A stretch of DNA of 39,456 bases from the UHGV virus genome UHGV-0205415; one strand, 5' to 3'. Of the stretch, positions 2,822-36,613 are shown in pieces. The DNA is from a virus. Under the pieces are notes generated by a model. It saw only the letters and a program-made list of their open reading frames with translations. It was not told where the DNA came from and ran no database searches. Position 1 is the stretch's first letter. The number at the start of each line of letters is the position of its first letter. Both the position numbers and the translations under genes were made by a program.

Positions 2822-3979
2822 ATGCTCACCGTTAAGCAGATTGAAGCAGCAAAGCCGAAAGAAAAACCATACCGCCTTCTCGATGGTAATGGCCTGTACC
2901 TTTATGTTCCTGTATCCGGGAAAAAGGTATGGCAGCTTCGCTACAAGATTGACGGTAAGGAAAAAATACTGACCGTCGGAAAATATCCGCTTATGACTTT
3001 GCAGGAGGCAAGGGATAAAGCATGGACCGCGAGGAAAGACATCTCGGTTGGCATCGATCCGGTAAAAGCGAAAAAGGCTTCGTCTAATAACAATTCCTTT
3101 AGCGCCATTTACAAGGAATGGTACGAGCACAAGAAGCAAGTATGGTCAGTAGGGTATGCGACTGAACTTGCCAAAATGTTTGATGACGACATTTTACCCA
3201 TCATCGGCGGCCTTGAGATTCAGGATATTGAGCCGATGCAACTGCTGGAAGTAATCCGCAGATTTGAAGATCGCGGTGCAATGGAGCGAGCCAACAAAGC
3301 CCGCAGAAGATGCGGCGAGGTTTTCCGTTACGCTATTGTCACCGGAAGGGCTAAATATAACCCAGCACCTGACCTTGCTGACGCCATGAAAGGATACCGC
3401 AAGAAGAACTTCCCGTTTCTTCCAGCAGACCAGATCCCTGCATTCAACAAAGCACTGGCAACATTTTCAGGAAGCATCGTATCGCTCATTGCGACCAAAG
3501 TTTTACGCTACACAGCCCTAAGAACGAAAGAGCTTCGTTCCATGCAATGGAAGAACGTCGATTTTGAAAACAGGATTATCACTATCGACGCCAGTGTGAT
3601 GAAGGGCCGCAAGATTCATGTTGTTCCTATGTCAGACCAGGTGGTTGAACTTCTCACTACGCTAAGCTCCATCACTAAACCAGTATCAGAGTTTGTTTTT
3701 GCCGGGCGCAACGATAAGAAGAAGCCAATCTGCGAGAACGCGGTATTGCTTGTGATCAAACAAATCGGCTATGAGGGTCTGGAAAGCGGTCACGGATTCA
3801 GGCATGAATTCAGCACGATTATGAACGAGCACGAATGGCCTGCCGACGCCATTGAAGTGCAACTGGCACATGCCAACGGCGGTTCTGTGCGCGGGATTTA
3901 CAACCATGCTCAGTATCTCGATAAGCGCAGAGAAATGATGCAGTGGTGGGCGGACTGGCTTGATGAGAAGGTGGAGTGA
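2822..3979 (+). CDS. int: tyrosine site-specific integrase (Arm-binding N-terminal domain type); alternative GTG start at 2786
   Basis: MLTVKQIEAAKPKEKPYRL N-terminus, C-terminal HxxR...Y catalytic region typical of phage integrases. Confidence 0.9.
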   Translation: MLTVKQIEAAKPKEKPYRLLDGNGLYLYVPVSGKKVWQLRYKIDGKEKILTVGKYPLMTLQEARDKAWTARKDISVGIDPVKAKKASSNNNSFSAIYKEWYEHKKQVWSVGYATELAKMFDDDILPIIGGLEIQDIEPMQLLEVIRRFEDRGAMERANKARRRCGEVFRYAIVTGRAKYNPAPDLADAMKGYRKKNFPFLPADQIPAFNKALATFSGSIVSLIATKVLRYTALRTKELRSMQWKNVDFENRIITIDASVMKGRKIHVVPMSDQVVELLTTLSSITKPVSEFVFAGRNDKKKPICENAVLLVIKQIGYEGLESGHGFRHEFSTIMNEHEWPADAIEVQLAHANGGSVRGIYNHAQYLDKRREMMQWWADWLDEKVE

Positions 3980-23599: not shown

Positions 23600-24037
23600 T
23601 CATCGAAGGCATTGCGTCCTGATGTATTCCTGCAGGTAGTTAACCTGCGCGGTTATCCTGTCGATTCCACTTCGGAGACGGTAATAATTGAGTTCAGCAT
23701 CTGCTGTAAGTCTTGGGCTTTCTCCATCGCCCATGCTGCTGGCTCCGGTCGTTGACTTTGCACAGGTGGCGGCGACTTGCAGGCGCTTACGACCAGCAGA
23801 AACATCAGCACGGAGACTTTCGATAGTCGCGTTAGCATCAGCAAGCTCCTTTGTATATCTGGCGTCGAGTTCTGCTACGTCACGTTGACGCTTCTGCATG
23901 TCAGCGATGATGGATGTGGCTTTGTCGCGCTGGGCTTTGTAGGCGATGGCGTTATCACGGTAATGATTAACAGCCCATGACAGGCAGACAATGATGCAGA
24001 TAACCAGAGCGGAGATAATCGCGGTGACTCTGCTCAT
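23600..24037 (-). CDS. Rz: i-spanin Rz (N-terminal part lambda-identical, C-terminal part divergent)
   Basis: [31 protein letters not shown] matches lambda Rz (recalled), rest diverges. Confidence 0.85.
23653..23844 (-). CDS. Rz1: o-spanin Rz1 lipoprotein embedded in Rz in +1 frame
   Basis: Signal peptide ending in lipobox Cys (LLVVSAC) followed by proline-rich [16 protein letters not shown]. Confidence 0.75.
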
Positions 24038-24510
24038 ACCTCAATCTCTCTGACCGTTCCGCCAGCCTCTTTGAATTTTGCAATCAGGCTGTCAGCCTTA
24101 TGCTCGAACTGACCATAACCAGCGCCCGGCAGTGAAGCCCAGATATTGCTGCAACGGTCAATTGCCTGACGAATATCACCACGATCAATCATCGGCAAAG
24201 CGCCACGCTCCTTAATCTGCTGCAATGCCACAGCGTCCTGGCTTTTCGGAGAGAAGTCTTTCAGGCCAAGCTGCTTACGATAGGCATCCCACCAACGGGA
24301 AAGAAGCTGGTAACGTCCGGCTGCTGTTGATTTGAGTTTTGGGTTTAGCGTGACAAGTTTGCGAGGGTGATCGGAGTAATCAGTGAATAGCTCTCCGCCA
24401 ACAATGACGTCATAACCATGATTTCTTGTTTTTTGACGTCCGTTATCAGTTCCCTCTGACCACGCCAGCATATCGAGGAACGCCTTACGTTGATTATTGA
24501 TTTCCACCAT
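24034..24510 (-). CDS. R: endolysin, lambda R lytic transglycosylase
   Basis: Protein sequence essentially identical to lambda R as recalled. Confidence 0.95.
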
Positions 24511-24817
24511 CTTCTACTCCGGCTTTTTTAGCAGCGAAGCGTTTGATAAGCGAACCAATCGAGTCAGTACCGATGTAGCCGATGAACACGCTCGTTATAT
24601 AAGCGAGATTGCTACTTAGTCCGGCGAAGTCGAGAAGGTCACGAATGAACCAGGCGATAATGGCGCACATCGTTGCGTCGATTACTGTTTTTGTAAACGC
24701 ACCGCCATTATATCTGCCGCGAAGGTACGCCATTGCAAACGCAAGGATTGCCCCGATGCCTTGTTCCTTTGCCGCGAGAATGGCGGCTAACAGGTCATGT
24801 TTTTCTGGCATCTTCAT
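24494..24817 (-). CDS. S: holin/antiholin, lambda S with dual start (MKM)
   Basis: Protein sequence essentially identical to lambda S107 as recalled. Confidence 0.95.
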
Positions 24818-25212
24818 GTCTTACCCCCAATAAGGGGATTTGCTCTATTTAATTAGGAATAAGGTCGATTACTGATAGAACAAATCCAGGCTACTGTGTT
24901 TAGTAATCAGATTTGTTCGTGACCGATATGCACGGGCAAAACGGCAGGAGGTTGTTAGCGCAACCTCTTGCCACCCGCTTTCACGAGGTCATGTGTAGAA
25001 GTCCGCAGCGTAACTATCACTGATGAATTCAGGATAGCCAGTGGCTACGGCTCAGTTTGGGTTGTGCTGTTGCTGGGCTGCGATGACGCCTGTACGCATT
25101 TGGTGATCCGGTTCTGCTTCCGGTATTCGCTTAATTCAGCACAACGGAAAGAGCACTCAATGCATTTAAGCCAAGCCCCATAAGGGAGAATGCTCTTACC
25201 TGTTGCACAGGT

Positions 25213-25270
25213 ATAAAAAATCCCGAAACCGTTATGCAGGCTCTAACTATTACCTGCGAACTGTTTCGGG
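25213..25270 (-). terminator. tR' terminator of the short pR' (6S) transcript
   Basis: CCCGAAAC...GTTTCGGG stem followed by TTTTTTAT on minus strand; matches lambda tR' region as recalled. Confidence 0.75.
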
Positions 25271-25407
25271 ATTGCATTTTGCAGACCTCTCAGCCTGCGA
25301 TGGTTGGAGTTCCAGACGATACGTCGAAGTGACCAACTAGGCGGAATCGGTAGTAAGCGCCGCCTCTTTTTATCTCACTACCACAACGAGCGAATTAACC
25401 CATCGTT
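25213..25407 (-). ncRNA. 6S-like short pR' transcript (about 190 nt)
   Basis: Distance from predicted pR' start to tR' matches lambda 6S RNA length. Confidence 0.55.
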
Positions 25408-25442
25408 GGGTCAAATTTACCCAACTTTATTCAAAAAGTCAA
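25407..25442 (-). promoter_or_regulatory. late promoter pR' (-35 TTGACT, 17-nt spacer, -10 TAAATT) with adjacent qut region
   Basis: Hexamers read from sequence; region matches lambda pR' as recalled. Confidence 0.7.
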
Positions 25443-25484
25443 TATCATGCCGTTAATATGTTGCCATCCGTGGCAATCATGCTG

Positions 25485-26108
25485 CTAACGTGTGACCGCA
25501 TTCAAAATGTTGTCTGCGATTGACTCTTCTTTGTGGCATTGCACCACCAGAGCGTCATACAGCGGCTTAACAGTGCGTGACCAGGTGGGTTGAGTAAGGT
25601 TTGGGATTAGCATCGTTACAGCGCGATATGCGGCGCTTGCTGGCATTCTTGAATAGCCGACTCCTTTGCATCTTCCGCACTCTTTCTCGACAACTCTCCC
25701 CCACTGCTCCGTTTTGGCTATATCAACCGCACGGCCTGTACCGTGGCAATCTCTGCATCTTGCCCCCGGCGTCGCGGCACTACGGCAATAATCCGCATAA
25801 GCGAATGTTGCGAGAACTTGCAGTACCTTTGCCTTAGTATTTCCTTCAAGCTTTGCCACACCACGGTATTTCCCCGATACCTTGTGTGCAAATTGCATCA
25901 GATAGTTGATAGCCTTTTGTTTGTCGTTCTGGCTGAGTTCGTGCTTACCACAGAATGCAGCCATTCCGAATCCGGCCTGTGATTGCGCCATCCCCATAGC
26001 AGCCATCACATCAGTACCGGAAAGAGAGTCAGAAGCCGTGGCCCGTGGTGAGTCGCTCATCATCGGGCTTTTTGGCGAATGAAATTTAGCTACGCTTTCG
26101 AGTCTCAT
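25485..26108 (-). CDS. Q: late gene antiterminator Q
   Basis: 207-aa protein essentially identical to lambda Q as recalled. Confidence 0.95.
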   Translation of the reverse strand: MRLESVAKFHSPKSPMMSDSPRATASDSLSGTDVMAAMGMAQSQAGFGMAAFCGKHELSQNDKQKAINYLMQFAHKVSGKYRGVAKLEGNTKAKVLQVLATFAYADYCRSAATPGARCRDCHGTGRAVDIAKTEQWGRVVEKECGRCKGVGYSRMPASAAYRAVTMLIPNLTQPTWSRTVKPLYDALVVQCHKEESIADNILNAVTR

Positions 26109-26293
26109 CGTCTTCCTCTCTTGCCCTGTTTGACCATCAGGACGCCGTTAACTATTACGTGACGCTCGCCTTTGCTGTCTCGGTTGTACTTGAGCACTGT
26201 TCCTCTTGCGCAGGAAAGCATCCTCGCCACTTCGGTCTGATTGCCTCGTGTCTGGATAAGAAGCTCTGGTATCGTTTGAATTGTGGCGTTCAT
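26105..26293 (-). CDS. ninH: NinH-like protein
   Basis: TIPELLIQTRGNQTEVARMLSCARGTV resembles lambda NinH. Confidence 0.8.
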   Translation of the reverse strand: MNATIQTIPELLIQTRGNQTEVARMLSCARGTVLKYNRDSKGERHVIVNGVLMVKQGKRGRR

Positions 26294-26939: not shown

Positions 26940-27664
26940 TAAGCAGCCTCCCCTGTTACTTTCAGCATTCCGTTATCGAGCAGCTTTCTGGTCAGCCACT
27001 GTTGACCACGCCCGGTGATTTTTGTAGTGAACGATATCTGTATTCCGTGATTTGTGTTGACCGCTGTTTCTTTCACTGTGAAATAGCCGCGATCCATATA
27101 TTCCTGCATTGGCACATTGCGCCGGGAACCTGAAGCAATAAGGATTTTGTGATCGCGCATCCACGCAAACAGTTTGTTTTGACCAATTCCAACAACCTTT
27201 GCAAAGTTTCCAATCAAAATTCCACTGGCCTCGCCAACGCGATCGGCAAACTCAACTTTAGGTGCGGCAATTGCGAGCTGGTTTTCCAGTTGCATTTTCT
27301 GCTCAGCAAGATCAGCAGCAAGGCGCAACGCTTCCGGTAGCGTTTTGGGGATATTAACCGCAGCTTCTTCAAGCTCTCGCCAACGGTCAACAAGACGAGC
27401 GGTGAACTCTGGCGACAACTGGGCAACGACAATAATGCTGTCTCGCTTTCCTTGTTCGCCCTCGAAGACGTAGAAATCACGCCTCCCGGTAATAACACAT
27501 AAATCATTGATTATGTTAGTGTGCTGCAATGCAGGAGGCTTGATAACGCCACGTTTCACCAATCTATCTATGGATACTTTTACATTGCTATGGCGGCTTT
27601 CTACCAACTCAGCGATTTCAATGCTTGTCATTTTGATGGCATTGCCATTTATTAACTCATTCAT
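26939..27664 (-). CDS. Rha/KilA-C type antirepressor-like regulatory protein
   Basis: N-terminal Rha-like region and C-terminal KilA-C-like region (recalled). Confidence 0.6.
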   Translation of the reverse strand: MNELINGNAIKMTSIEIAELVESRHSNVKVSIDRLVKRGVIKPPALQHTNIINDLCVITGRRDFYVFEGEQGKRDSIIVVAQLSPEFTARLVDRWRELEEAAVNIPKTLPEALRLAADLAEQKMQLENQLAIAAPKVEFADRVGEASGILIGNFAKVVGIGQNKLFAWMRDHKILIASGSRRNVPMQEYMDRGYFTVKETAVNTNHGIQISFTTKITGRGQQWLTRKLLDNGMLKVTGEAA

Positions 27665-27833
27665 CGTCTTCTTCCTCGTACATTGAGCTATTCGGATCGC
27701 TCATCAGTTCTGCGCAGCAGTGCTCACACACGTGAACTTCCAGCACATGCAGCTTCTGGCCGCAGTTAGCGCACGTTAAAGCCCGCTCGACGCTTTCTTT
27801 CTGGTATTGAAGGGATTGGGATGGGCTAAGCAT
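27657..27833 (-). CDS. ninF: NinF-like protein
   Basis: MLSPSQSLQYQKESVERALTCANCGQKLHVLEVHVCEHCC nearly identical to lambda NinF (recalled); track ORF 27657..27890 trimmed. Confidence 0.8.
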   Translation of the reverse strand: MLSPSQSLQYQKESVERALTCANCGQKLHVLEVHVCEHCCAELMSDPNSSMYEEEDDE

Positions 27834-28227
27834 GGCTTTCACCATTAAAAAGTCGCTTGTAAGCATCAATGTCTCGTTTTGCTTCACCAAGCTTTCGTCT
27901 TAATTCCATGTTTTCTGATTCAAGCTTTTCCATGTCTTGTTGGTATCGATCGCGGTGTTCTTTCCATGCTTTTTGATACGCCTTCATGTATGTCATGTTG
28001 GCCTTTCTCTTTGCCTGACGAACTGCGTGGTGGTTTTTCACAAACCAGTCAGGGTCGTTAAATGCTGCTCTGGCGCATGTATACCAATAATTTGTTGCCT
28101 CCCTGTTTAGCCAATAAATACTGATAAATGGCAACCGGATAGACACCATTTTTCGTTGTGACTCTTTCTCGCCAAACATGTGGCCTTTTTTGATGCTAAG
28201 TCCAAATCCAGGTTGAATTAAAAGCAT
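27826..28227 (-). CDS. hypothetical protein inserted between ninE and ninF, AT-rich 5' half, coiled-coil C-terminus
   Basis: ORF 27826..28269; ATG at 28227 after AGGAAA; no family recognised. Confidence 0.45.
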   Translation of the reverse strand: MLLIQPGFGLSIKKGHMFGEKESQRKMVSIRLPFISIYWLNREATNYWYTCARAAFNDPDWFVKNHHAVRQAKRKANMTYMKAYQKAWKEHRDRYQQDMEKLESENMELRRKLGEAKRDIDAYKRLFNGESHA

Positions 28228-28229
28228 TG

Positions 28230-28406
28230 TCATTTCCTCGCACGATATCTTAGCCACCGGATATCCCACAGGTGAGCTGTGTAATTGAAGGTTTTTACGT
28301 CAGATTCTTTTGGGGTTGGCTTGCGTTTATTTCTGGAGCGTTTCGTTGGAAGGTATTTGCAGTTTTCGCAGATGATGTCGGTGATACTTCGTCGCTGTCG
28401 TCTCAT
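28230..28406 (-). CDS. ninE: NinE-like protein (58 aa, below ORF-track size cutoff)
   Basis: Manual translation [30 protein letters not shown]... matches lambda NinE (recalled); ATGA overlap with ninB stop. Confidence 0.8.
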
Positions 28407-29596: not shown

Positions 29597-32062
29597 TCAG
29601 AATCCTCCTTTCTTCTTGGACTGCGGTTCCTCGCGTTCACGGCGGCGCATTTCAGCAGACTGTTGGTCTGTGTCATAAATAGCGCCATTTGCCTGAATGC
29701 AATACACCGTGCCGGTATTGCCATGACGATTGAGACGAAGGATTAGTTCGGTTTCACCAGGTGGAACACTGTCATCAAAAGCACCTTCACGATGGATCCC
29801 CACCCAATAATCGCAATCCTGTTCAATCTGCCCTGTATCTCGTGAGTCACTTGGTAATGGGCGTTTATTGGTTCGGCTTTCCAGTGCGCGGTTAAGCTGC
29901 GTCAGAAGCACAACAACGCAATCAAGCTCTTTGGCAAGGTTCTTCAGTCCTTTGGTGATCATGCCGTAAGCAAGGTCGTTGCGATCGGCCTTCTCAGCGG
30001 TCATTAGTGTCAGGTAATCGACCAGAATCATGCCAACACATCCTTTTTCTCGCTTGATTCGACGGCTTTCGCTAACGATTTGAGCCAGAGATAATCCCGG
30101 CGTGTCGTCGATGTAAAGCAGGTCGATTTCACTCAAACGATTAGCTGTTTCGATCGCCCTGTTGAAGTCACCATCGTAATCACCCTGATAGCCGTCATCA
30201 GCGTCATTTGTCGCCGGAAGGTAAAAAATATTCGGGTTAACACCAGACTTCTGCCCTACCAGTTTTTCCAGTATCTGATCACCTGGCATTTCAAGGCTGA
30301 ACATCAGAGCGGGCTTTTTCTCATGCACTGCGCAGTTGATTGCCATCTGGCTGTATAGCGTGGTGTTGTGGGTTAGAATGTATCCGTCAGTTGCATACAA
30401 ATGTCTCTCGTGGGATACCATGATGCAAATGCACTCTTCACGTCCAATATACTCAACCGACGTGATAACAGGCGCACTTGTTTTGATGCGTTTTGCAGTG
30501 AATTTTTGCTTCAGGCGTGGAGATTTTATGTGTGATAGAACCTCATCAGGCAACCTGATTGCGCAAATATGGGCATCCATACCTTTGCGCATTTCTCCCT
30601 TATAACTGAATTTCGGCTCCTGTTTGGTTGTCATACGACACACGCCACCAAGAGAATGCACCAGCCGCTTTACACCATCTGACAGGAACTTGCTTGCCGA
30701 GCTAAAGCGCAGGGCATTATTTCCTTCAACCCAACCATCGGTTTCAAGTAATCCGCATAGAACATCAATACGAGTTTGCTTATCAGCAGAAAAAATAATA
30801 TCCGGGATAATTTTAATCTCTGACATCCGGCCGTAGATACCAAGCCGTTGCATAACCCGCGTAAGAGATAATTTGCGGCTAAACTTGTGAGATAGGGAGT
30901 AATCGCAGCCAGAAACATGCCTGACTTCAATATCGTCACCCACTTCAGATCTTACTCGCTCAATGATGTATGGTTCCGTCATGCTGATTCGTGGCGTACC
31001 TGCAAGATTTCCATCGCCAAGTAACGCACCTAACAGCCATGGGCTAATCCCTAAATCAACAGGCAATCCGAAGTCACCGCTAATACCAGGAACATGAATG
31101 CGGCTTTGATAGCGAACGCATTCCATCATGTCCCGTAGGCGGCAGGTGTCTACAACATCAACGCCACCGGTAATACGGTTACTATGAATTTCCCACAAAT
31201 GATCATCCGCGCAATCAACGGTTCTTCCGTCAGAGAACGTAACTCGGTAAATATCTCGCTCCCCTTGAGGAAAAACTCCAGACACGAATGATGGTTGTCC
31301 ATCCACTGATGCTAGGGAATCTCCAACACATACGTCACGAAATGTTGTCCATGAACCATCAGCAAGCAAAATGCGTGAATTAAGCGGTTGCGCTTTCCCC
31401 ATCTTAGGGCGAGCGCCAATGACAAACAGAGAGCCTTTCACCAGACCTTTCGGTGACAGCATCCTGTCCAGCGATGGGATCCCTGTGCTCATTCCTCGTT
31501 GTTCGCCTGACGGGTCAAATCGCTTCTCAAGGTCGCTAACCCAGTCTTCCATGACCTCACCAAATGAGCGAAGGCCGCGACGCGATCCGGTTTTTGCATG
31601 GTCTGTCAGTTGCGTGAAAATCGCCTGAATAGCTTCGTACTTCTGCGTTGCAGTCATTCCGTTGCGGGAATAGAGCAATTCCGTCGCTTCAGTCATGCGG
31701 TTGATGGCGTAGCGTTCCATTGCGGTTTCACGAACCTGCATTGCATAGGCAACGATGTTTGCTGCGCTTGGCGTGTTCTTTGCGATCTCAGCGATATAAG
31801 CAAAACCGCCAACAGACGCCGTTAACGATTTACGCTCCAGTTCATCGAAAAGCGTCAGGCCATCTACTGGCTTTTGCTCCCGGTGCATTCTGGTTATTTC
31901 TTCGAAAAGGATTTTGTGTGGTCGGCAGTAAAATGAATCAGGCTTCAGCATCGCCAGAACTTTCTGGACGCGCTCACTGCTGTCATCATCCAGAAGCAAT
32001 CCACCAATCACCGCCTGCTCTGCCTCGATGCTATGGGGCGGCGCATAAAAATTATCGGTCAT
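29597..32062 (-). CDS. replicative DnaB-family helicase interrupted by an intein
   Basis: ORF 29597..32077; ATG at 32062 after GAGGGTG; DnaB motifs GARPKMGK ... TTLYSQMAINCAV ... LMFSLEMP flank a 343-aa insertion. Confidence 0.85.
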   Translation of the reverse strand: MTDNFYAPPHSIEAEQAVIGGLLLDDDSSERVQKVLAMLKPDSFYCRPHKILFEEITRMHREQKPVDGLTLFDELERKSLTASVGGFAYIAEIAKNTPSAANIVAYAMQVRETAMERYAINRMTEATELLYSRNGMTATQKYEAIQAIFTQLTDHAKTGSRRGLRSFGEVMEDWVSDLEKRFDPSGEQRGMSTGIPSLDRMLSPKGLVKGSLFVIGARPKMGKAQPLNSRILLADGSWTTFRDVCVGDSLASVDGQPSFVSGVFPQGERDIYRVTFSDGRTVDCADDHLWEIHSNRITGGVDVVDTCRLRDMMECVRYQSRIHVPGISGDFGLPVDLGISPWLLGALLGDGNLAGTPRISMTEPYIIERVRSEVGDDIEVRHVSGCDYSLSHKFSRKLSLTRVMQRLGIYGRMSEIKIIPDIIFSADKQTRIDVLCGLLETDGWVEGNNALRFSSASKFLSDGVKRLVHSLGGVCRMTTKQEPKFSYKGEMRKGMDAHICAIRLPDEVLSHIKSPRLKQKFTAKRIKTSAPVITSVEYIGREECICIMVSHERHLYATDGYILTHNTTLYSQMAINCAVHEKKPALMFSLEMPGDQILEKLVGQKSGVNPNIFYLPATNDADDGYQGDYDGDFNRAIETANRLSEIDLLYIDDTPGLSLAQIVSESRRIKREKGCVGMILVDYLTLMTAEKADRNDLAYGMITKGLKNLAKELDCVVVLLTQLNRALESRTNKRPLPSDSRDTGQIEQDCDYWVGIHREGAFDDSVPPGETELILRLNRHGNTGTVYCIQANGAIYDTDQQSAEMRRREREEPQSKKKGGF
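30365..31393 (-). mobile_element. intein with LAGLIDADG homing endonuclease motifs inserted in helicase Walker A (P-loop)
   Basis: Insertion between GK and TT of P-loop; ends in THN with Thr as +1 residue; LLGALLGDGN and LCGLLETDGW motifs; begins with Ala (no Cys/Ser nucleophile). Confidence 0.75.
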
Positions 32063-32951
32063 CGTGTTCACCCTCACGAACTTTCAGGTAGGTATTATCG
32101 TTAAGCAGGAAATCAAATCCCTTTTTGTGCCAGACGGTTCCGCGCTGATGGTTTGGGCGCTCTTCGAACATCCATCGGCAATTTTCGCCTACGTAGCTCA
32201 AATAATTTCTCCAGTCCTGCATCGTGAACCCATGCCCGTCAAGCTGGCGGGTTATCACTCCGGCTTTGCGCCAGAACGTTCGGATCTGGTTTTTACGCTT
32301 GTCATTCAGTGCGCGGATTTTTGGCGCTTCAGGAAGGATTTCGTGGTAAGCATCGACAACATCCTGACAGCTAACGGAAGGTTTTTTCTTGTCAGACTTT
32401 TTGTCTGCTGCGGTACTCTCTAATACGTCAGTATTAGAGATAATATTATTATATTCTTTATCTGTGGTAATTTGCTGGTAATCTGCTGGTACAGTATTGC
32501 TTGCAGGCATTGGTATTGCTGGCTTTGAGGTGGTAATTTGCTGGTAATCTGCTGGTACAAAATTTGACTGATAATCGTCATATTTCTCTACCGAGAAAAC
32601 TGAGAATTTACCGTGTGAAACCCAGTCAATCATGCCGAGTTTTTTGAACTTTCTAAGCAGGTACTGAACGCGATCTGGTTTGAGTCCTGTTTCAAACGCC
32701 AGAGAGTTTCTACCGCCAAGTAGCTTCCCTCTGCCTACCAGAATTTCTCCTGCGTCAGTCATTACATACTCAGGCGTATGCTTTGCTTTGAGGATTAAGT
32801 GAACCCACAGATGCGCAGCTTCTGCGTCCTTGTAAAACGGCACATCCATAATTTTACGGTGCAGCAAGGCATACCCCTTACCGCTGCTTTGATGCGGTTG
32901 TTGTAGCCTTCTGGCCTCTCTGGCTTCGGCTAGATTAGATATGTTACTCAT
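32052..32951 (-). CDS. replication initiator (O / P22 gp18-like) containing origin iterons
   Basis: Position upstream of helicase; internal DNA iterons encode repeated peptide [10 protein letters not shown]. Confidence 0.6.
32420..32565. repeat. candidate origin of replication: two identical 29-bp repeats (32465..32493, 32531..32559) built from TGCTGGTA-type iterons plus adjacent AT-rich tract
   Basis: Direct repeats and AT-rich stretch 32425..32460 read from sequence. Confidence 0.6.
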
Positions 32952-33094: not shown

Positions 33095-33168
33095 ACTCCT
33101 GTGGATTGATCCAGTCTTTCTACATCAGGCCTCGAAGAATTCGCCGTTCTTCGGGGCTTTTTCTTTTG
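33095..33168 (+). ncRNA. candidate oop-like antisense RNA ending in a terminator inside the cII 3' end
   Basis: Hairpin CTCGAAGAA-ttcgccg-TTCTTCGGG followed by CTTTTTTCTTTT on plus strand at 33131..33168; analogous to lambda oop. Confidence 0.3.
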
Positions 33169-33403
33169 TCAGCATTCTGGCTACTTTCTTAGCCAGTTCC
33201 GCCAACTCCTCGTCTTCAACACCCCATTCAAGAACAGCCAGAAGCATTCCCATTTTTGGGATGAAGCTGTCTTTCCATCGCGAAATTTGCGATTCATTAA
33301 TCCCTAACGCGTCGGCAACCTTTCGCTGACCACGTACAGCAATTCGATTCAGGATGTTGCTTGTAATTGCATTCGCTTTCTTGCGAGTACTTGTAAGTTG
33401 CAT
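33125..33403 (-). CDS. cII: CII-like transcriptional activator
   Basis: SQISRWK...[10 protein letters not shown] motif as in lambda CII. Confidence 0.8.
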
Positions 33404-33420
33404 ATGTAAGTATTTCCTTA

Positions 33421-33454
33421 ACTAATAAGAAGTTATGCGCATCAACTTATGCGC
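33421..33454 (-). terminator. tR1-like terminator candidate between nutR and cII
   Basis: GCGCA/TGCGC hairpin with moderately U-rich tail on minus strand; weak. Confidence 0.3.
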
Positions 33455-33461
33455 GTTGTAT

Positions 33462-33505
33462 TCCCGCATTTCGGCGGGAATGAGGACCATGACTGTTAAA
33501 GAGCG
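33462..33505 (-). promoter_or_regulatory. nutR: boxA (CGCTCTTTAACAG) followed by boxB hairpin
   Basis: boxA matches lambda consensus; boxB stem-loop TCCCGC-cgaaat-GCGGGA, the same sequence as in nutL. Confidence 0.55.
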
Positions 33506-33511
33506 GTGTTA

Positions 33512-33712
33512 CTATTTGTTTTTCTTGTTGCTTGGGAAAGGACGAACTTCCTCTCCAATCACACTGCCATCAGGCTTTACCGTAACCATAATGTTACGGC
33601 CTGCCAGAATGGCCTTGCTGATAGCGCACTGGATTACACCAAAGTCACTGGCTGCTTTAGCCTGTCCATGGATTTTGGCGTAATCGGCAAGTGTCATTCG
33701 AATCATATGCAC
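33512..33712 (-). CDS. cro: Cro repressor
   Basis: [20 protein letters not shown]...FPSNKK resembles lambda Cro. Confidence 0.85.
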
Positions 33713-33735
33713 TCTCCGTTATTAACCATGAACAA

Positions 33736-33806
33736 AGAATACTACAGGTATTCAAAGCAATCAATACTTAGGGTATTTTTAGTTTAAGTACCTTAGCTAT
33801 TAGAAT
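33736..33806. promoter_or_regulatory. OR region: three 15-bp operators of type AATACnnnnnGTATT (33738..33752, 33763..33777, weaker 33787..33801) with divergent pR and pRM
   Basis: Operators spaced about 25 bp; pR -35 TTGATT and -10 TATTCT overlap first two; TAGAAT 7 nt before cI ATG suggests leaderless cI mRNA. Confidence 0.6.
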
Positions 33807-33812
33807 TAAGCT

Positions 33813-34529
33813 ATGGAAAATAAAAAATCACTGACGACAGAACAGCTGGAAGACGCTAAGCGGCTTAAGGCTTTGTATGAGTCAAAAAAGAAAGAATTGG
33901 GAATAACCCAATACTCAATCGCTGATGAACTGGGTATCACCCAAGGAGCGGTAGGGCATTATCTTAATGGCAGAAATGCGCTAAACGTTGAGGTTGCATC
34001 TGGTTTTGCACGATTGTTGCAAGTCTCAATTGCTGATTTTAGCCAGTCAATTGCTGCCAAGGTTGCAGAACAGGCAGAAAGCCTTAAGAGCGATGCCAAC
34101 GTAAGGTATGCAGGGGAATACAGAGCAGGAAAGAGGTATCCGGTGTTAAGCAGTATCCAGGCTGGCTCGTGGTGTGAAGCATGCGAACCATACACCATTA
34201 AAGACATAGATGTTTGGCTTGAGTCTGACGCGCATATTCAAGGTAATGCGTTCTGGCTTAAAGTGGAAGGTGATTCAATGACGGCACCGGTTGGGTTAAG
34301 CATTCCAGAGGGAACATTCGTTCTTTTCGATACCGGAAGGGAGGCGATCAACGGCAGCTTGGTCATAGCAAAACTTTCTGACTCTAACGAAGCAACATTC
34401 AAGAAGCTGATAATCGACGGTGGAAATAAATACCTCAAGGGACTTAATCCTGCATGGCCTCTCGTGCCAATCAATGGAAACTGCAAGATTATAGGCGTTG
34501 CAATTGAGACAAAACTCAGACTGGTTTGA
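33813..34529 (+). CDS. cI: CI repressor (HTH plus S24 LexA-like autocleavage domain)
   Basis: LTTEQLEDAKRLKALYE N-terminus and C-terminal FWLKVEGDSM...FKKL resemble lambda CI. Confidence 0.9.
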   Translation: MENKKSLTTEQLEDAKRLKALYESKKKELGITQYSIADELGITQGAVGHYLNGRNALNVEVASGFARLLQVSIADFSQSIAAKVAEQAESLKSDANVRYAGEYRAGKRYPVLSSIQAGSWCEACEPYTIKDIDVWLESDAHIQGNAFWLKVEGDSMTAPVGLSIPEGTFVLFDTGREAINGSLVIAKLSDSNEATFKKLIIDGGNKYLKGLNPAWPLVPINGNCKIIGVAIETKLRLV

Positions 34530-34547
34530 TCACGCAAGGGGGCGCTT

Positions 34548-34916
34548 ATGGTTGGAACCGCTATAGCAAGCTTTTTTGGGATGTTGGCAATCTCGACAAT
34601 TTACGGCTTAGCGCATGCTTTTATTGCGAAATCTCTATCAGAAAAAATAAGCCAGGCTTGGGCGCATAGATCAGCTCGTTTCATGATTCTGGTGATCATA
34701 GCAATACAAGGGATATCTGTATTTATCCTCTATGGATCAAGCTTATACCTATTGTATCAAGGCGCGACATTTACGCCTTACACCAGTGATTACGGAACTC
34801 TATACGATGGTAGTGAAGACATCACTGTGGCTTGGATCGTCTTTGGTTTATCTATGGCCGTGTCTGTTGTAGCAGACATCATTAAGGTAATTCTCGTCTT
34901 AACCTTCGCTGACTAA
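34548..34916 (+). CDS. three-transmembrane-segment membrane protein immediately downstream of cI (rex position)
   Basis: AAGGGGG RBS; three long hydrophobic segments; co-oriented with cI, 18 nt after its stop. Confidence 0.5.
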   Translation: MVGTAIASFFGMLAISTIYGLAHAFIAKSLSEKISQAWAHRSARFMILVIIAIQGISVFILYGSSLYLLYQGATFTPYTSDYGTLYDGSEDITVAWIVFGLSMAVSVVADIIKVILVLTFAD

Positions 34917-35002
34917 CCTATAATCCCGGCAGCAATAGCTATCGGGATCCACTTCACATATCCCGCATAAAAAGCACTGAACAAGCAGACACCGAAAAAA
35001 TA

Positions 35003-35089
35003 AATATCCTTTGTATTCATCTGTTTATCATTATTCCATCAAAAATAAATACCCTGGGTATTTACACAATAAAATACCTACAGTATTCT
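35003..35089 (+). promoter_or_regulatory. OL region and pL: operators AATATCCTTTGTATT, AATACCCTGGGTATT, AATACCTACAGTATT; pL -35 TTTACA, -10 TATTCT
   Basis: Same operator family as OR; promoter hexamers 17 nt apart overlapping operators. Confidence 0.55.
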
Positions 35090-35134
35090 TTAGCCATCAG
35101 CAGGACGCTGGTAGCCAAACGGAACAGATTGGCA

Positions 35135-35176
35135 GGCTCTTTAACATTGATGGGATTGTCCCGCCGAAATGCGGGA
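35135..35176 (+). promoter_or_regulatory. nutL: boxA-like GGCTCTTTAACA and boxB hairpin TCCCGC-cgaaat-GCGGGA
   Basis: Identical boxB sequence to nutR; located between pL and N. Confidence 0.5.
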
Positions 35177-35283
35177 ACCAAAGAGTAGTTGGCTTTGGGG
35201 TGATGTGAAGTGCAGCTGCACGACGGCAACCGGAAGATAAGCACCCGGCGCGTCACCGCCAAAGTCAATCATCGGAGGTCAGC

Positions 35284-35583
35284 ATGACAGTAGTCATTAC
35301 ATATCTGGCTGACGATAACGCCAGAAATCGCCGCAGAGCACGCAGACAGGATCAACGTGAACAGGCAATGCAAGAACAGCGACTGGCGCGAAAAATTGCG
35401 CTAAAGCTCTCTGGTTGCGTCAGAGCAGACAAAGCAGCATCACTCGGAAGCCTTCGCTGCAAGAAGACAGAAGAAGTCGAGAGTAAACAGAATCGTATTT
35501 ACTACCGCAAGCCACGCAGTGAAATGGGTGTGACTTGTGTTGGTCGCCAGAAAATGAAATTAGGCAGCAAACCACTTATTTGA
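35284..35583 (+). CDS. N: N-like antiterminator
   Basis: Arg-rich motif NARNRRRARRQ near N-terminus, C-terminus GVTCVGRQKMKLGSKPLI like lambda N; GGAGG RBS. Confidence 0.75.
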   Translation: MTVVITYLADDNARNRRRARRQDQREQAMQEQRLARKIALKLSGCVRADKAASLGSLRCKKTEEVESKQNRIYYRKPRSEMGVTCVGRQKMKLGSKPLI

Positions 35584-35594
35584 GAGGAATTAAT

Positions 35595-36218
35595 ATGTCA
35601 TCAATCCGCTTAACTACGAGAATGAAAGAGGAAATCGCTCGTAACGCTTTAATTAAGTCTGGGGTTTTCACTGAACTTGAAGAAGTAACAAAGTTAAAGA
35701 ACCAGCTTGCACTTGACGCCAGAGTTATTGCGTTTGGCGGTAAAAAGAAAACTGAGGAAGTGGATCAGTTATCATCCAAGTTGGTAGCTATAAGTGAAGA
35801 ACTTGAAAAGATGGGATGTTCATTTTACTCATACGATGTTCGTTCTACTTCAATTTATCTTACTGTATCTGGCAGAAGGGTTGGATGGCATTCATATGGG
35901 AAAGACGGCAACGGCGAAGATATATTGCTCCCTACTCCGACAAAAGATAAATGCATGTTTGACGCAGAGCACGAAATAACAAAAAGGTTTGATGAAATCT
36001 GCGCATTACAACAAAAATTTGAAGCCAAGAAAAAGGATATCGAATCAAATGTATGGGCTGCTTTAAACTCAGTCACAACAGTTAAGCGACTCATTGAAGT
36101 TTGGCCTGAAAGCAAAGAATTGCTACCAAAAGAAGCAGATAAAGCAAGTGCAGCACTTCCTGCTTTACGGGTAGAAGATTTGAATAAGATGATTGGACTT
36201 CCTTCCGAGGCCGCGTAG
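35595..36218 (+). CDS. hypothetical 207-aa protein directly downstream of N
   Basis: ORF 35535..36218; ATG at 35595 after GAGAGGA; no family recognised. Confidence 0.5.
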   Translation: MSSIRLTTRMKEEIARNALIKSGVFTELEEVTKLKNQLALDARVIAFGGKKKTEEVDQLSSKLVAISEELEKMGCSFYSYDVRSTSIYLTVSGRRVGWHSYGKDGNGEDILLPTPTKDKCMFDAEHEITKRFDEICALQQKFEAKKKDIESNVWAALNSVTTVKRLIEVWPESKELLPKEADKASAALPALRVEDLNKMIGLPSEAA

Positions 36219-36233
36219 TCGGCCTTTATTTTT
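36208..36233 (+). terminator. tL-type terminator overlapping the stop codon of the preceding gene
   Basis: AGGCCG-cgtagt-CGGCCT followed by TTATTTTTGG. Confidence 0.5.
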
Positions 36234-36352
36234 GGCATAAACAACAGAATAAACACTGCACTGTGTATTCATTCCCTCGAGTGAATACACGGAGCAATGT
36301 CGCTCGTAACTAAACAGGAGCCGACTTGTTCTGATTATTGGAAATCTTCTTT

Positions 36353-36376
36353 GCCCTCCAATGTGAGGGCTTTTTT
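36353..36376 (+). terminator. strong intrinsic terminator upstream of cIII
   Basis: GCCCTC-caatgtg-AGGGC followed by TTTTTT. Confidence 0.65.
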
Positions 36377-36442
36377 ATATGCATACCAATAACGCTTCAC
36401 TAGAGGCGTTTTCGTTATGCAATCAAACAGAAGGAGCATCCT

Positions 36443-36613
36443 ATGCAACAGTTCGCTATTGCAGGGGCGGCATCGGTTCGCCCTTTCAACCCGATTTTAT
36501 CGGTACAGCATTCACGAAAAAACATTTTAACCGGAGCAGACTTTAAACAACCAAGAATGAAAAGTTTGCTCGAAAAGCTTTGGGATATTTTGAAACAACA
36601 AGGCCGCCCATGA
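36443..36613 (+). CDS. cIII: CIII-like protease inhibitor (56 aa, below track cutoff)
   Basis: AAGGAG RBS; MQQFAIAG N-terminus and KSLLEKLWDIL helix resemble lambda CIII (recalled). Confidence 0.55.
   Translation: MQQFAIAGAASVRPFNPILSVQHSRKNILTGADFKQPRMKSLLEKLWDILKQQGRP

Follow-up and report, generated by a model that had tools for sequence, protein, structure and literature searches.

Predicted operators of an HK620-type immunity region that keeps the lambda layout but not the lambda recognition sequence

Gene content and identity of the locus

The window, by which we mean the whole stretch of DNA analysed (39,456 nt), carries cI and cro in divergent orientation on the plus and minus strand, respectively, with start codons 107 bp apart (101 bp in lambda). 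The following genes and nut sites were located around them.

33125–33403, minus strand: cII, downstream of cro on the pR transcript (Pfam Phage_CII, E=1.8e-42; cII in the HK620 annotation)
33460–33505, minus strand: nutR (identical to nutR in AF335538)
33512–33706, minus strand: cro, 64 aa, lambda Cro family (Pfam Cro, PF09048)
33813–34529, plus strand: cI repressor gene, 238 aa (Pfam HTH_3 and Peptidase_S24)
34548–34916, plus strand: gene for an hkaS-like hydrophobic protein of 122 aa (hkaS, function unknown, in the HK620 annotation)
35135–35176, plus strand: nutL (exact match to the AF335538 feature)
35284–35583, plus strand: N antiterminator ORF, 99 aa, with an arginine-rich N-terminus (N in HK620 and relatives)

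The region was 98.7% identical to coliphage HK620 over the 1.9 kb that run from cro through cI and hkaS to OL, and the stretch cro-OR-cI-hkaS-OL-nutL shared 98.7–99.1% identity with the HK620 immunity region. The OR1–3, OL1–2, pR, pL and nutL/R features of the HK620 record (AF335538; Clark, Inwood, Cloutier and Dhillon 2001, J Mol Biol 311:657; the GenBank annotation was used) map onto window coordinates. Since cI, cro and the operators are near-identical to those of AF335538, with identical operator arms, the region is of the HK620 immunity type. In all likelihood it serves a lambdoid, P22-like prophage of the HK620 type as its primary immunity module, which controls lysis and lysogeny and has a lambda-style CI/Cro layout. 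Its operators, promoters and genes are already known from the HK620 immunity region annotated in 2001, and are not new. Homoimmunity with HK620 is expected from the sequences, because the CI N-terminal domain is 98.9–100% identical and the operator arms are the same. The assignment thus gives the immunity group of the prophage and hence the phages that it should exclude.

Immunity regions of this type are common to HK630, HK140, mEpX2, HF4s and some Stx phages. The same region was present in 146 of 5,426 complete E. coli genomes, and the module also occurs in prophages of many other Enterobacterales genera. Outside the immunity region, the window is a different mosaic from HK620, with CUS-3-like virion genes, lambda-like Q-S-R and an intein-containing DnaB. 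A preliminary description of this DNA had spoken of a lambda-identical late region, which does not hold: only the Q-S-R segment (23789–26115) matches lambda, at 94%, and the virion genes are P22-like and nearest to those of CUS-3.

The hkaS-like gene sits between cI and OL, where it replaces lambda rexAB, and OR and OL are 1.3 kb apart here compared with 2.4 kb in lambda. Its product had no match in a Pfam search, and the gene is probably co-transcribed with cI. The N ORF is the first gene of the pL operon.

CI and Cro are homologues of the lambda proteins

The encoded CI combines an HTH N-terminal domain with an S24 self-cleaving C-terminal domain (Pfam HTH_3, Peptidase_S24), and is 99–100% identical to HK620-type CI and 43% identical to lambda CI over 233 aa. 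Its best PDB match was 3bdn, and the best solved structures were those of lambda CI (3bdn/1lmb). Conservation extends to the Ala-Gly, GDSM and FKK motifs; Q-A-G, G-D-S-M and F-K-K align with Ala111-Gly112, Ser149 and Lys192 of lambda CI, its cleavage site and Ser/Lys dyad. At the position of lambda CI Asp38, the positive-control residue, the window CI has Asp, as do 7 of 8 CIs in the alignment.

Cro matched Pfam PF09048 with E=3.6e-26 and is 63% identical to lambda Cro. Its best PDB matches were lambda Cro (5cro/6cro, E=5e-19), and its recognition helix reads I-Q-C-A-I-S-K-A. At the sequence level, the homology of both proteins to the solved lambda proteins is unambiguous.

Operator sites and promoters are arranged as in lambda

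Searching the whole window for AATAC-N5-GTATT returned four perfect sites (33738–33752, 33763–33777, 35048–35062 and 35073–35087), one pair in the gap that separates cro from cI and the other pair upstream of N; all four lie within these two regulatory gaps. Each of the clusters, OR and OL, contains a third, weaker site. The one upstream of N (35003–35017, AATATcctttGTATT) has one mismatch, whereas the one between cro and cI (33787–33801, AGTACcttagCTATT) has two. The preliminary description had listed six such sites, some with a single mismatch; the six sites stand, four of them perfect and one with one mismatch, but OR3 departs from the pattern at two positions. An operator matrix was built from 59 sites of other lineages (related phages) and scored on 39,440 window positions, of which the six sites took ranks 1–6. 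We have high confidence in these sites as predicted operators with the 17-bp pseudo-palindromic consensus N-AATACY-NNN-RGTATT-N. The predicted operators and promoters are listed below, the palindromes without strand.

33736–33764, minus strand: pR, -35 TTGATT (33764–33759), 17-nt spacer, -10 TATTCT (33741–33736)
33737–33753: OR1, GAATACTACAGGTATTC, perfect arms, identical to HK620 OR1, matrix rank 3
33762–33778: OR2, CAATACTTAGGGTATTT, perfect arms, matrix rank 1
33786–33802: OR3, AAGTACCTTAGCTATTA, two arm mismatches, identical to HK620 OR3, matrix rank 6
33801–33806, plus strand: pRM -10 TAGAAT, 6 nt before the cI ATG (33813), colinear with lambda pRM
35002–35018: probable OL3, AAATATCCTTTGTATTC, one arm mismatch, matrix rank 5, centre 45 bp from OL2
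35025–35041: OL3 according to the HK620 GenBank record, TTATCATTATTCCATCA, matrix rank 4,961 of 39,440
35047–35063: OL2, AAATACCCTGGGTATTT, perfect arms, matrix rank 4
35061–35089, plus strand: pL, TTTACA, 17-nt spacer, TATTCT, promoter scan 9/12
35072–35088: OL1, AAATACCTACAGTATTC, perfect arms, identical to HK620 OL1, matrix rank 2

Both OR2 and OL2 differ from their HK620 counterparts at central position 8 only. As had been noted at the outset, sites overlap the TATTCT -10 hexamers of pR (TTGATT-17-TATTCT, 33764–33736, minus strand) and pL (TTTACA-17-TATTCT, 35061–35089, plus strand). OR1 overlaps the -10 and OR2 the -35 hexamer of pR, and OL1 and OL2 do the same at pL. The promoter hexamers are enclosed by the pR (33729–33764) and pL (35061–35096) features of AF335538, whose sequences recur without change in the window. 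pR was located by pattern; the promoter scan missed it because its score of 8/12 was under the threshold of 9. On the other side of OR, OR3 overlaps the pRM -10 hexamer and OR2 adjoins a weak pRM -35-like hexamer, TTTAGT (33778–33783), so that three related 17-bp pseudo-palindromes overlap pR and pRM, an arrangement of the lambda type. The whole of OR is colinear with that of lambda: operator centres lie at -19, -43 and -68 from the cI start (-19, -42 and -66 in lambda), and the OR1–OR2 spacing is 25 bp instead of 24 bp.

The start of cI also follows lambda, where TAGATT precedes the ATG by 6 nt in a colinear position. Among 32 distinct relatives, all had a TAnnnT -10 hexamer 6–7 nt before the cI ATG and none had a Shine-Dalgarno sequence there, while a GGAG Shine-Dalgarno sequence was found before cro in 32/32; in the window, GGAG precedes the cro ATG (33706). 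It is thus very probable that cI is translated from a leaderless pRM transcript as in lambda, a proposal of the preliminary description with which the relatives agree. Neither pRM nor leaderless cI appears in the AF335538 annotation.

A lambda-like switch is the preferred reading

The searchable literature yielded neither binding or footprinting results nor transcript mapping for the CI or Cro of HK620-type phages; the 2001 HK620 description was represented by its GenBank annotation only, and a paper that treats lambda CI and related operators (PMC10742460) does not cover HK620. What follows on whether the proteins bind, in which order the sites fill, how pRM is activated and where transcription starts is inferred from the arrangement above. 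CI dimers, with an HTH N-terminal and a RecA-cleavable S24 C-terminal domain, and Cro dimers with the lambda Cro fold would bind the same 17-bp operators. OR1 and OR2 would cover the -10 and -35 of pR, which would transcribe cro-cII-O-P, and OR3 the -10 hexamer of pRM; OL1 and OL2 would cover pL, from which N would be transcribed, with a third, weaker site 45 bp further toward cI. CI bound at OR1/OR2 and OL1/OL2 would shut off pR and pL in a lysogen. CI at OR2, beside the weak pRM -35, would most likely activate its own leaderless transcript, the first nucleotide of which would be the A of the cI AUG or adjacent to it, and at high concentration would also fill OR3 and repress pRM. Once CI has cleaved itself in the SOS response, Cro expressed from pR would occupy OR3 before the other sites and so lock in the lytic course.

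The operators could be real and yet serve a switch unlike that of lambda, in which CI binds without cooperativity, OR2 does not activate pRM, or the cI transcript of lysogens has a leader. Lambdoid switches do vary in such details, the 933W repressor being described as apparently non-cooperative (PMC3317979), and here OR1 and OR2 are 1 bp further apart than in lambda, and OL3 would lie 45 bp from OL2. Activation of pRM is moreover an extrapolation, because OR2 has its centre at -43 from the start of cI, 1 bp more than the -42 of lambda. Against these points, CI is homologous to lambda CI over its full length, C-terminal domain included, the operator geometry stays within 1–2 bp of lambda's, Asp is kept at the Asp38 position, and the -10 hexamer 6–7 nt before a cI that has no Shine-Dalgarno sequence recurs in every one of the 32 relatives. 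We consider a departure of this kind unlikely and prefer the lambda-like switch.

The third left operator is probably misplaced in the reference record

In the cluster upstream of N, where the two perfect sites OL1 and OL2 overlap pL, it is ambiguous where the third site lies. AF335538 places OL3 at 35025–35041, a lambda-like spacing, and labels 34997–35027 as tIMM. Judged by the matrix, conservation and position, the true OL3 is probably 35002–35018 and the annotated one is probably misplaced. The former ranks fifth among the scored positions and the latter 4,961st. The arms of the 35002–35018 site are invariant within the HK620 lineage, and an AATAC/T half-site is kept at the same offset in four diverged lineages (L015, L119, L061 and L101); the annotated stretch, in contrast, varies among members of the lineage and is not conserved from one lineage to another.

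The 35002–35018 site overlaps the start of a 35-codon minus-strand ORF (34913–35020). It might accordingly be asked whether the annotated stretch is the third left operator after all, and the 35002–35018 palindrome a part of the tIMM terminator or of this small ORF, which starts at 35020. This is quite improbable in our judgment, somewhat more so than a non-lambda switch. A scan found no terminator-like hairpin on the plus strand at 34997–35027. The ORF was rejected as the cause of the conservation, because it is confined to the HK620 lineage and broken by frameshifts or a stop in three relatives, while lineages without it still have the half-site 45 bp from OL2. If OL3 does lie at 35002–35018, the left operator would have a geometry unlike that of lambda, in which OL3 and OL2 are 20 bp apart. 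The comparison flags a probable error in the reference record.

Site statistics, conservation and association with the CI helix

Site statistics, homology, geometry, conservation and the association between helix and operator were all observed directly here. Shuffling gave a chance expectation of 0.04 perfect sites, and none of 100 shuffles reached four. Matches with two mismatches, however, are frequent by chance (29 found, 16 expected), so the support for OR3 is positional and comparative: across 35 distinct related OR regions a third site takes up this position in nearly every relative, its left arm being degenerate in one lineage.

Across these 35 OR regions, whose CI and Cro are 64–100% and 46–100% identical to those of the window, arms and site positions were kept and centres and spacers varied. 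The same was true of OL, where arms were kept and centres varied across 44 variants. Within the HK620 lineage, 0 of 60 arm columns varied, compared with 18 of 113 other columns. This first comparative set (the 35 OR regions, the OL variants and the lineage polymorphism) was selected for perfect site pairs, and therefore the arm conservation of OR1/OR2 and OL1/OL2 is partly built in; free of that selection are only the OR3 and OL3 sites and a helix test on 80 loci. For the latter, the loci were retrieved with peptides from parts of CI other than the recognition helix. All 55 loci with the helix QG[AG]VGHY.NGR had the motif upstream of cI, and none of the 25 loci with other CI helices did. Five loci in which a QS..AQI CI helix was combined with the Cro helix Q-S-A-I-S-K had lambda-like TATAACCGC/TATCACCGC sites.

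That the palindromes are chance products of AT-rich intergenic DNA or mere promoter parts is extremely improbable: GTATTCT does contain the -10 TATTCT and two-mismatch palindromes do arise readily, but four perfect sites fall in two regulatory gaps, the arms are kept on both sides, including the halves outside the promoter hexamers, while centres vary, and the motif tracks the CI recognition helix.

Recognition differs from lambda at half-site base pairs 3 and 4

The preliminary description had held that the operators are not those of lambda, and this is correct. The lambda half-site is TATCACCGC, with which the sites here share only A2, A5 and C6(C7); the TATCACCGC half-site is absent, and CI helix 3, QGAVGHYLNG here and QSGVGALFNG in lambda, differs at 6 of 10 positions. 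To speak of a distinct operator family, as was done there, captures the changed recognition sequence but overstates the distance, for both proteins are homologous to those of lambda and the bases just named are retained in the half-site. Because the half-site is AATACY here and TATCACC in lambda, specificity would depart from lambda mainly at base pairs 3–4, AT here and TC there. The change is accompanied by Cys (Thr in relatives) replacing Ser at position 2 of the Cro helix, and by Gly replacing Ser45 in CI helix 3. At positions H2 and H5 together, Cro has Cys/Ser where lambda Cro has Ser/Asn.

The residue/base pairs that are retained are Gln-A2, Ala-A5 and Lys-C6. An "evolutionary code" for Cro has been published (Hall, Lefevre and Cordes 2005; Hall et al. 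2011; discussed in PMC6649833), and its three pairings all hold here, as they do in lambda (Gln H1 with A+2, Ala H3 with A+5, Lys H6 with C+6). The code does not extend to base pairs 3–4. Ser H2 of lambda Cro contacts base pairs 4–5 (PMC6649833). Across relatives, base pairs 3–4 co-varied with Cro H2, with Cys or Thr for AT, Ser for TC or TA, and Ile for GT. A switch of a single residue may be involved, at Cro helix position 2 (Cys/Thr, Ser or Ile) together with CI helix-3 position 2 (Gly or Ser), for which the half-sites may be AATAC, TATCAC and TAGTAC, respectively. We put forward only tentatively, at somewhat less than even chances, the combined proposal that OL3 lies at 35002–35018 and that such a single-residue switch retunes lambda-family repressors at half-site base pairs 3–4. 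If true, the switch would extend the published three-pair code.

Relation to other lambdoid switches

Beyond the shared half-site bases and Cro residues, the region resembles lambda in its homologous CI and Cro, in its tripartite operators of 17 bp, in which the central base pair is the odd one, and in the -10 hexamer 6 nt before the cI ATG. The operators also stand in the same places with respect to the promoters pR and pRM and to the start of cI. Like 434, P22 and epsilon34, the region has divergent repressor and cro genes, and palindromic operators recur over pR and pL. In 434 the operator has 14 bp (ACAA-N6-TTGT), and that of P22 has 18 bp and no central base pair. For epsilon34, the operator consensus is WTACRAWWTGTAT (PMC2629481). 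Among the 60 listed of 293 matches to the CI N-terminal domain, there was no 434 or P22 record.

As the HK620 annotation dates from 2001 and the module is common in E. coli, the finding matters little as a discovery; it is correct but ordinary. Its further use is as a natural close relative of lambda with altered specificity, which could be employed in orthogonal CI/Cro switches or to test rules of protein–DNA recognition.

In a genome-wide scan, pattern matches in Bacteroidota, Firmicutes and archaea had no CI/Cro homologue nearby and were treated as chance. The matches in Pseudomonas and Pasteurellaceae were associated with distant CI-like repressors that carry GAVGHW or GAIGHW helices, with the sites 0.4–2 kb from the gene.

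Operator sites of the HK620 immunity type

The exact motif AATAC-N5-GTATT occurred four times in the 39,456 bp window, starting at 33738, 33763, 35048, and 35073, against a chance expectation of 0.04, and none of 100 dinucleotide-preserving shuffles reached four. When one mismatch was allowed, 35003–35017 was the sole addition in the whole window. The third cro–cI site (33787–33801, AGTAC..CTATT) had two mismatches, a level at which the window contained 29 matches versus 16 expected by chance, so this site needs contextual support. The preliminary description had listed six sites, some with one mismatch; four are exact and one has a single mismatch, but OR3 has two. The promoters claimed there (pL, pR, and a TAGAAT upstream of cI) were all located.

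Features of the immunity region (OR, operators between cro and cI; OL, operators upstream of N)
33125–33403, minus, cII
33512–33706, minus, Cro, 64 aa, Pfam PF09048
33764–33736, minus, pR, TTGATT-17-TATTCT
33737–33753, HK620 OR1 17-mer
33762–33778, HK620 OR2 17-mer
33786–33802, HK620 OR3 17-mer
33801–33806, TAGAAT hexamer, then 6 nt, then the cI ATG at 33813
33813–34529, plus, repressor, HTH and Peptidase_S24, 238 aa
34548–34916, plus, hkaS-like hydrophobic protein, 122 aa, between cI and OL
35047–35063, HK620 OL2 17-mer
35061–35089, pL, TTTACA-17-TATTCT
35072–35088, HK620 OL1 17-mer
35284–35583, plus, N-like ORF, arginine-rich

Megablast of 33400–35300 against phage records generated full-length matches of 98.7–99.1% identity to HK620, HK630, HK140, mEpX2, HF4s, and several Stx phages, and 146 of 5,426 complete E. 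coli genomes contained the same 1.6 kb. The HK620 record (AF335538) annotates OR1, OR2, OR3, OL1, OL2, OL3, pR, pL, pRE, tR1, tIMM, nutL, and nutR. Its mapped 17-mers are the sites noticed previously plus one base on either side, with central position 8 as the sole difference in OR2 and OL2. Since the sites are already annotated, the finding is a rediscovery: the feature is the known HK620 immunity type. The observation was correct and its interpretation correct in essentials. In the searchable literature, neither binding nor transcript results for this immunity type turned up.

The hkaS-like gene, whose product had no match in a Pfam search, occupies the position of rexAB in lambda and may be a prophage-expressed gene for exclusion or conversion. 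Where other lineages share these operators, the cargo at this position differs, with ~110 to 2,600 bp separating the end of cI from OL2. The N ORF has 99 codons versus 90 for the N annotated in HK620; as the start is shared, the C-termini must differ.

Comparison with the lambda switch

Identity to the lambda counterpart was 43% for the window CI (over 233 residues) and 63% for the window Cro; in both cases the lambda protein was also the best solved structure. OR aligned colinearly with lambda OR at the DNA level; measured from the first base of the cI ATG, its operator centres lay at 19, 43, and 68 bp, compared with 19, 42, and 66 bp in lambda. The HK620 immunity type appears to be closely related to the lambda switch in both function and evolution, its operator specificity being altered. 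That the specificity would not be lambda's, as proposed previously, agrees with the consensus, which shares only A2, A5, C6, and C7 with the lambda operators (TATCACCGC...).

CI retains the counterparts of Gln44 and Asn55 of lambda and has Gly in place of Ser45, all three being contact residues in lambda. The Cro helix reads I-Q-C-A-I-S-K, compared with Y-Q-S-A-I-N-K in lambda. A published evolutionary code for Cro matches Gln H1 to A+2, Ala H3 to A+5, and Lys H6 to C+6; lambda Cro contacts base pairs 4–5 through Ser H2 and base pair 3 through Asn (PMC6649833). The window Cro keeps all three code pairs, and its changed residues are those facing the changed base pairs 3–4.

The window sequence TAGAAT-TAAGCT-ATG has the same spacing as TAGATT-TAACGT-ATG in lambda, where pRM transcription begins with the A of the AUG. 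A TAnnnT hexamer (TAGAAT, TAATAT, TACTAT, TACAAT, or TAAAAT) preceded the cI ATG in 32/32 distinct relatives, at 6 nt in 27 loci and 7 nt in 5, and the intervening bases varied. No Shine-Dalgarno-like 4-mer was found 4–16 nt upstream of cI in any of these 32 relatives, whereas all had GGAG upstream of cro. The hexamer spacing and the missing Shine-Dalgarno sequence strongly argue that cI is translated from a leaderless transcript as in lambda, in line with the earlier proposal.

Recognition helices and operator type

An IMG/VR scan requiring two adjacent perfect sites yielded 120 loci, 67 of which encoded both CI and Cro homologues. In all 31 distinct pairs (CI 64–100% and Cro 46–100% identical to the window), CI helix 3 was [TS]QG[AG]VGHY[LMI]NGR and the Cro helix Q[CT]AISKA. 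The system was also found in prophages of Lonsdalea, Tatumella, Pectobacterium, Providencia, Kluyvera, Photorhabdus, Pantoea, Phytobacter, Siccibacter, Lelliottia, and Scandinavium. Among 35 distinct OR sequences anchored at the cI ATG, three sites with conserved arms lay at fixed positions while their centres and the inter-operator spacers varied freely, and within the HK620 lineage 0/60 columns were variable in the arms versus 18/113 elsewhere; in this motif-selected set, arm conservation is partly built in by selection, the OR3 and OL3 arms being exempt. An operator matrix of 59 distinct sites, taken only from non-HK620 lineages (position 7, C/T; position 11, G/A), ranked the six window sites 1–6 of 39,440 positions.

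Distant CI-like repressors (29–43% identical; helices TPGAVGHWLNGKR or TQGAIGHWLTGRR) lay 0.4–2 kb from perfect site pairs in Pseudomonas cichorii and P. capsici (L193, L194), in locus L207, and in Rodentibacter and Glaesserella (L176, L177), which may reflect the same specificity outside Enterobacterales or coincidence.

Because the IMG/VR loci had been selected by the motif, 80 loci were fetched through CI peptides that do not overlap the recognition helix ([ND]E[AF]TFKK and RLKA[LI]YE[SKA]), and sites were counted up to 160 bp upstream of cI.

CI helix and operator sites in the 80 loci
[TS]QG[AG]VGHY.NGR, 55 loci: at least one perfect site in 55/55, plus at least two sites with at most one mismatch
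TKGAVSHW, 18 loci: no perfect sites
SQSAVAQI, 5 loci: no perfect sites
TQSAVGHY, 2 loci: no perfect sites

Overall CI identity was similar (62–67%) in the loci with other helices. The SQSAVAQI group had the Cro helix R-Q-S-A-I-S-K and lambda-like TATAACCGC/TATCACCGC sites, and the Fostie-like TQSAVGHY group had T-Q-I-A-I-S-K and TAGTAC-type sites. These results link the motif to the recognition helices and make position 2 of each helix the likely determinant for base pairs 3–4.

IMG/VR loci in the range L263–L270 (CI 65–67% identical, helix SQSAVAQI[FL]AGKN; Cro helix R-Q-S-A-I-S-K) carried lambda-like operators (TATAACCGC, CAACACCGC, TATCACCGC), indicating that operator type follows the helix rather than overall similarity. 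In phage Fostie (L211, PP925832; stretches 2200–2510 and 3200–3400) and loci L271 and L273, CI was 62–68% identical and differed in helix 3 by one Gly-to-Ser change (TQSAVGHYLNGRN), with TAGTAC/AGTACT-type palindromes replacing AATAC-N5-GTATT in the regulatory gaps of all three; the Cro helix was T-Q-I-A-I-S-K in L271 and L273. This change may be a one-residue specificity switch.

Placement of OL3

The OL3 annotated in HK620 (AF335538 7888–7904) corresponds to window 35025–35041 (TTATCATTATTCCATCA), which ranked 4,961 in the operator matrix, was polymorphic inside the HK620 lineage, and was unconserved in other lineages. The site noticed previously, 35002–35018, ranked 5 and had invariant arms within the HK620 lineage. 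An AATAC/T half-site was kept 45 bp from OL2 in lineages with CI only 72–87% identical, and in other lineages the spacing between OL2 and a third site was 21 or 30 bp. Of the two stretches, 35002–35018 is very probably OL3, in preference to the annotated site.

A 35-codon hydrophobic ORF (MNTKDIYFFGVCLF...; 34913–35020, minus), convergent with hkaS, has its start overlapping the probable OL3. It was not found outside the HK620 lineage, and in three relatives a frameshift or stop breaks it, which makes it an unlikely gene and rules it out as the cause of the conservation of 35002–35018.

The annotated OL3 is unlike the remaining five operators. The annotated tIMM (~34997–35027) encloses the better OL3 candidate, and no convincing hairpin was found there.

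Genome context

The late region had been called lambda-identical, which did not hold: BLAST against lambda matched only Q-S-R (23789–26115, 94%) and a few short patches (197–314, 1298–1891, 27662–28399, and 36216–36466). The virion genes are P22-like, closest to CUS-3 (~96%), and HK620 is the nearest match to the early region; positions 1–29500 are a genome mosaic.

29597–32077, minus, replicative DnaB-like helicase gene, 826 aa

In this protein, the DnaB_C domain lies in two stretches flanking a LAGLIDADG_3 homing-endonuclease-like insert, an arrangement that suggests an intein. Matching phage records call the gene only replication protein P, DnaB-like helicase, or DNA helicase.
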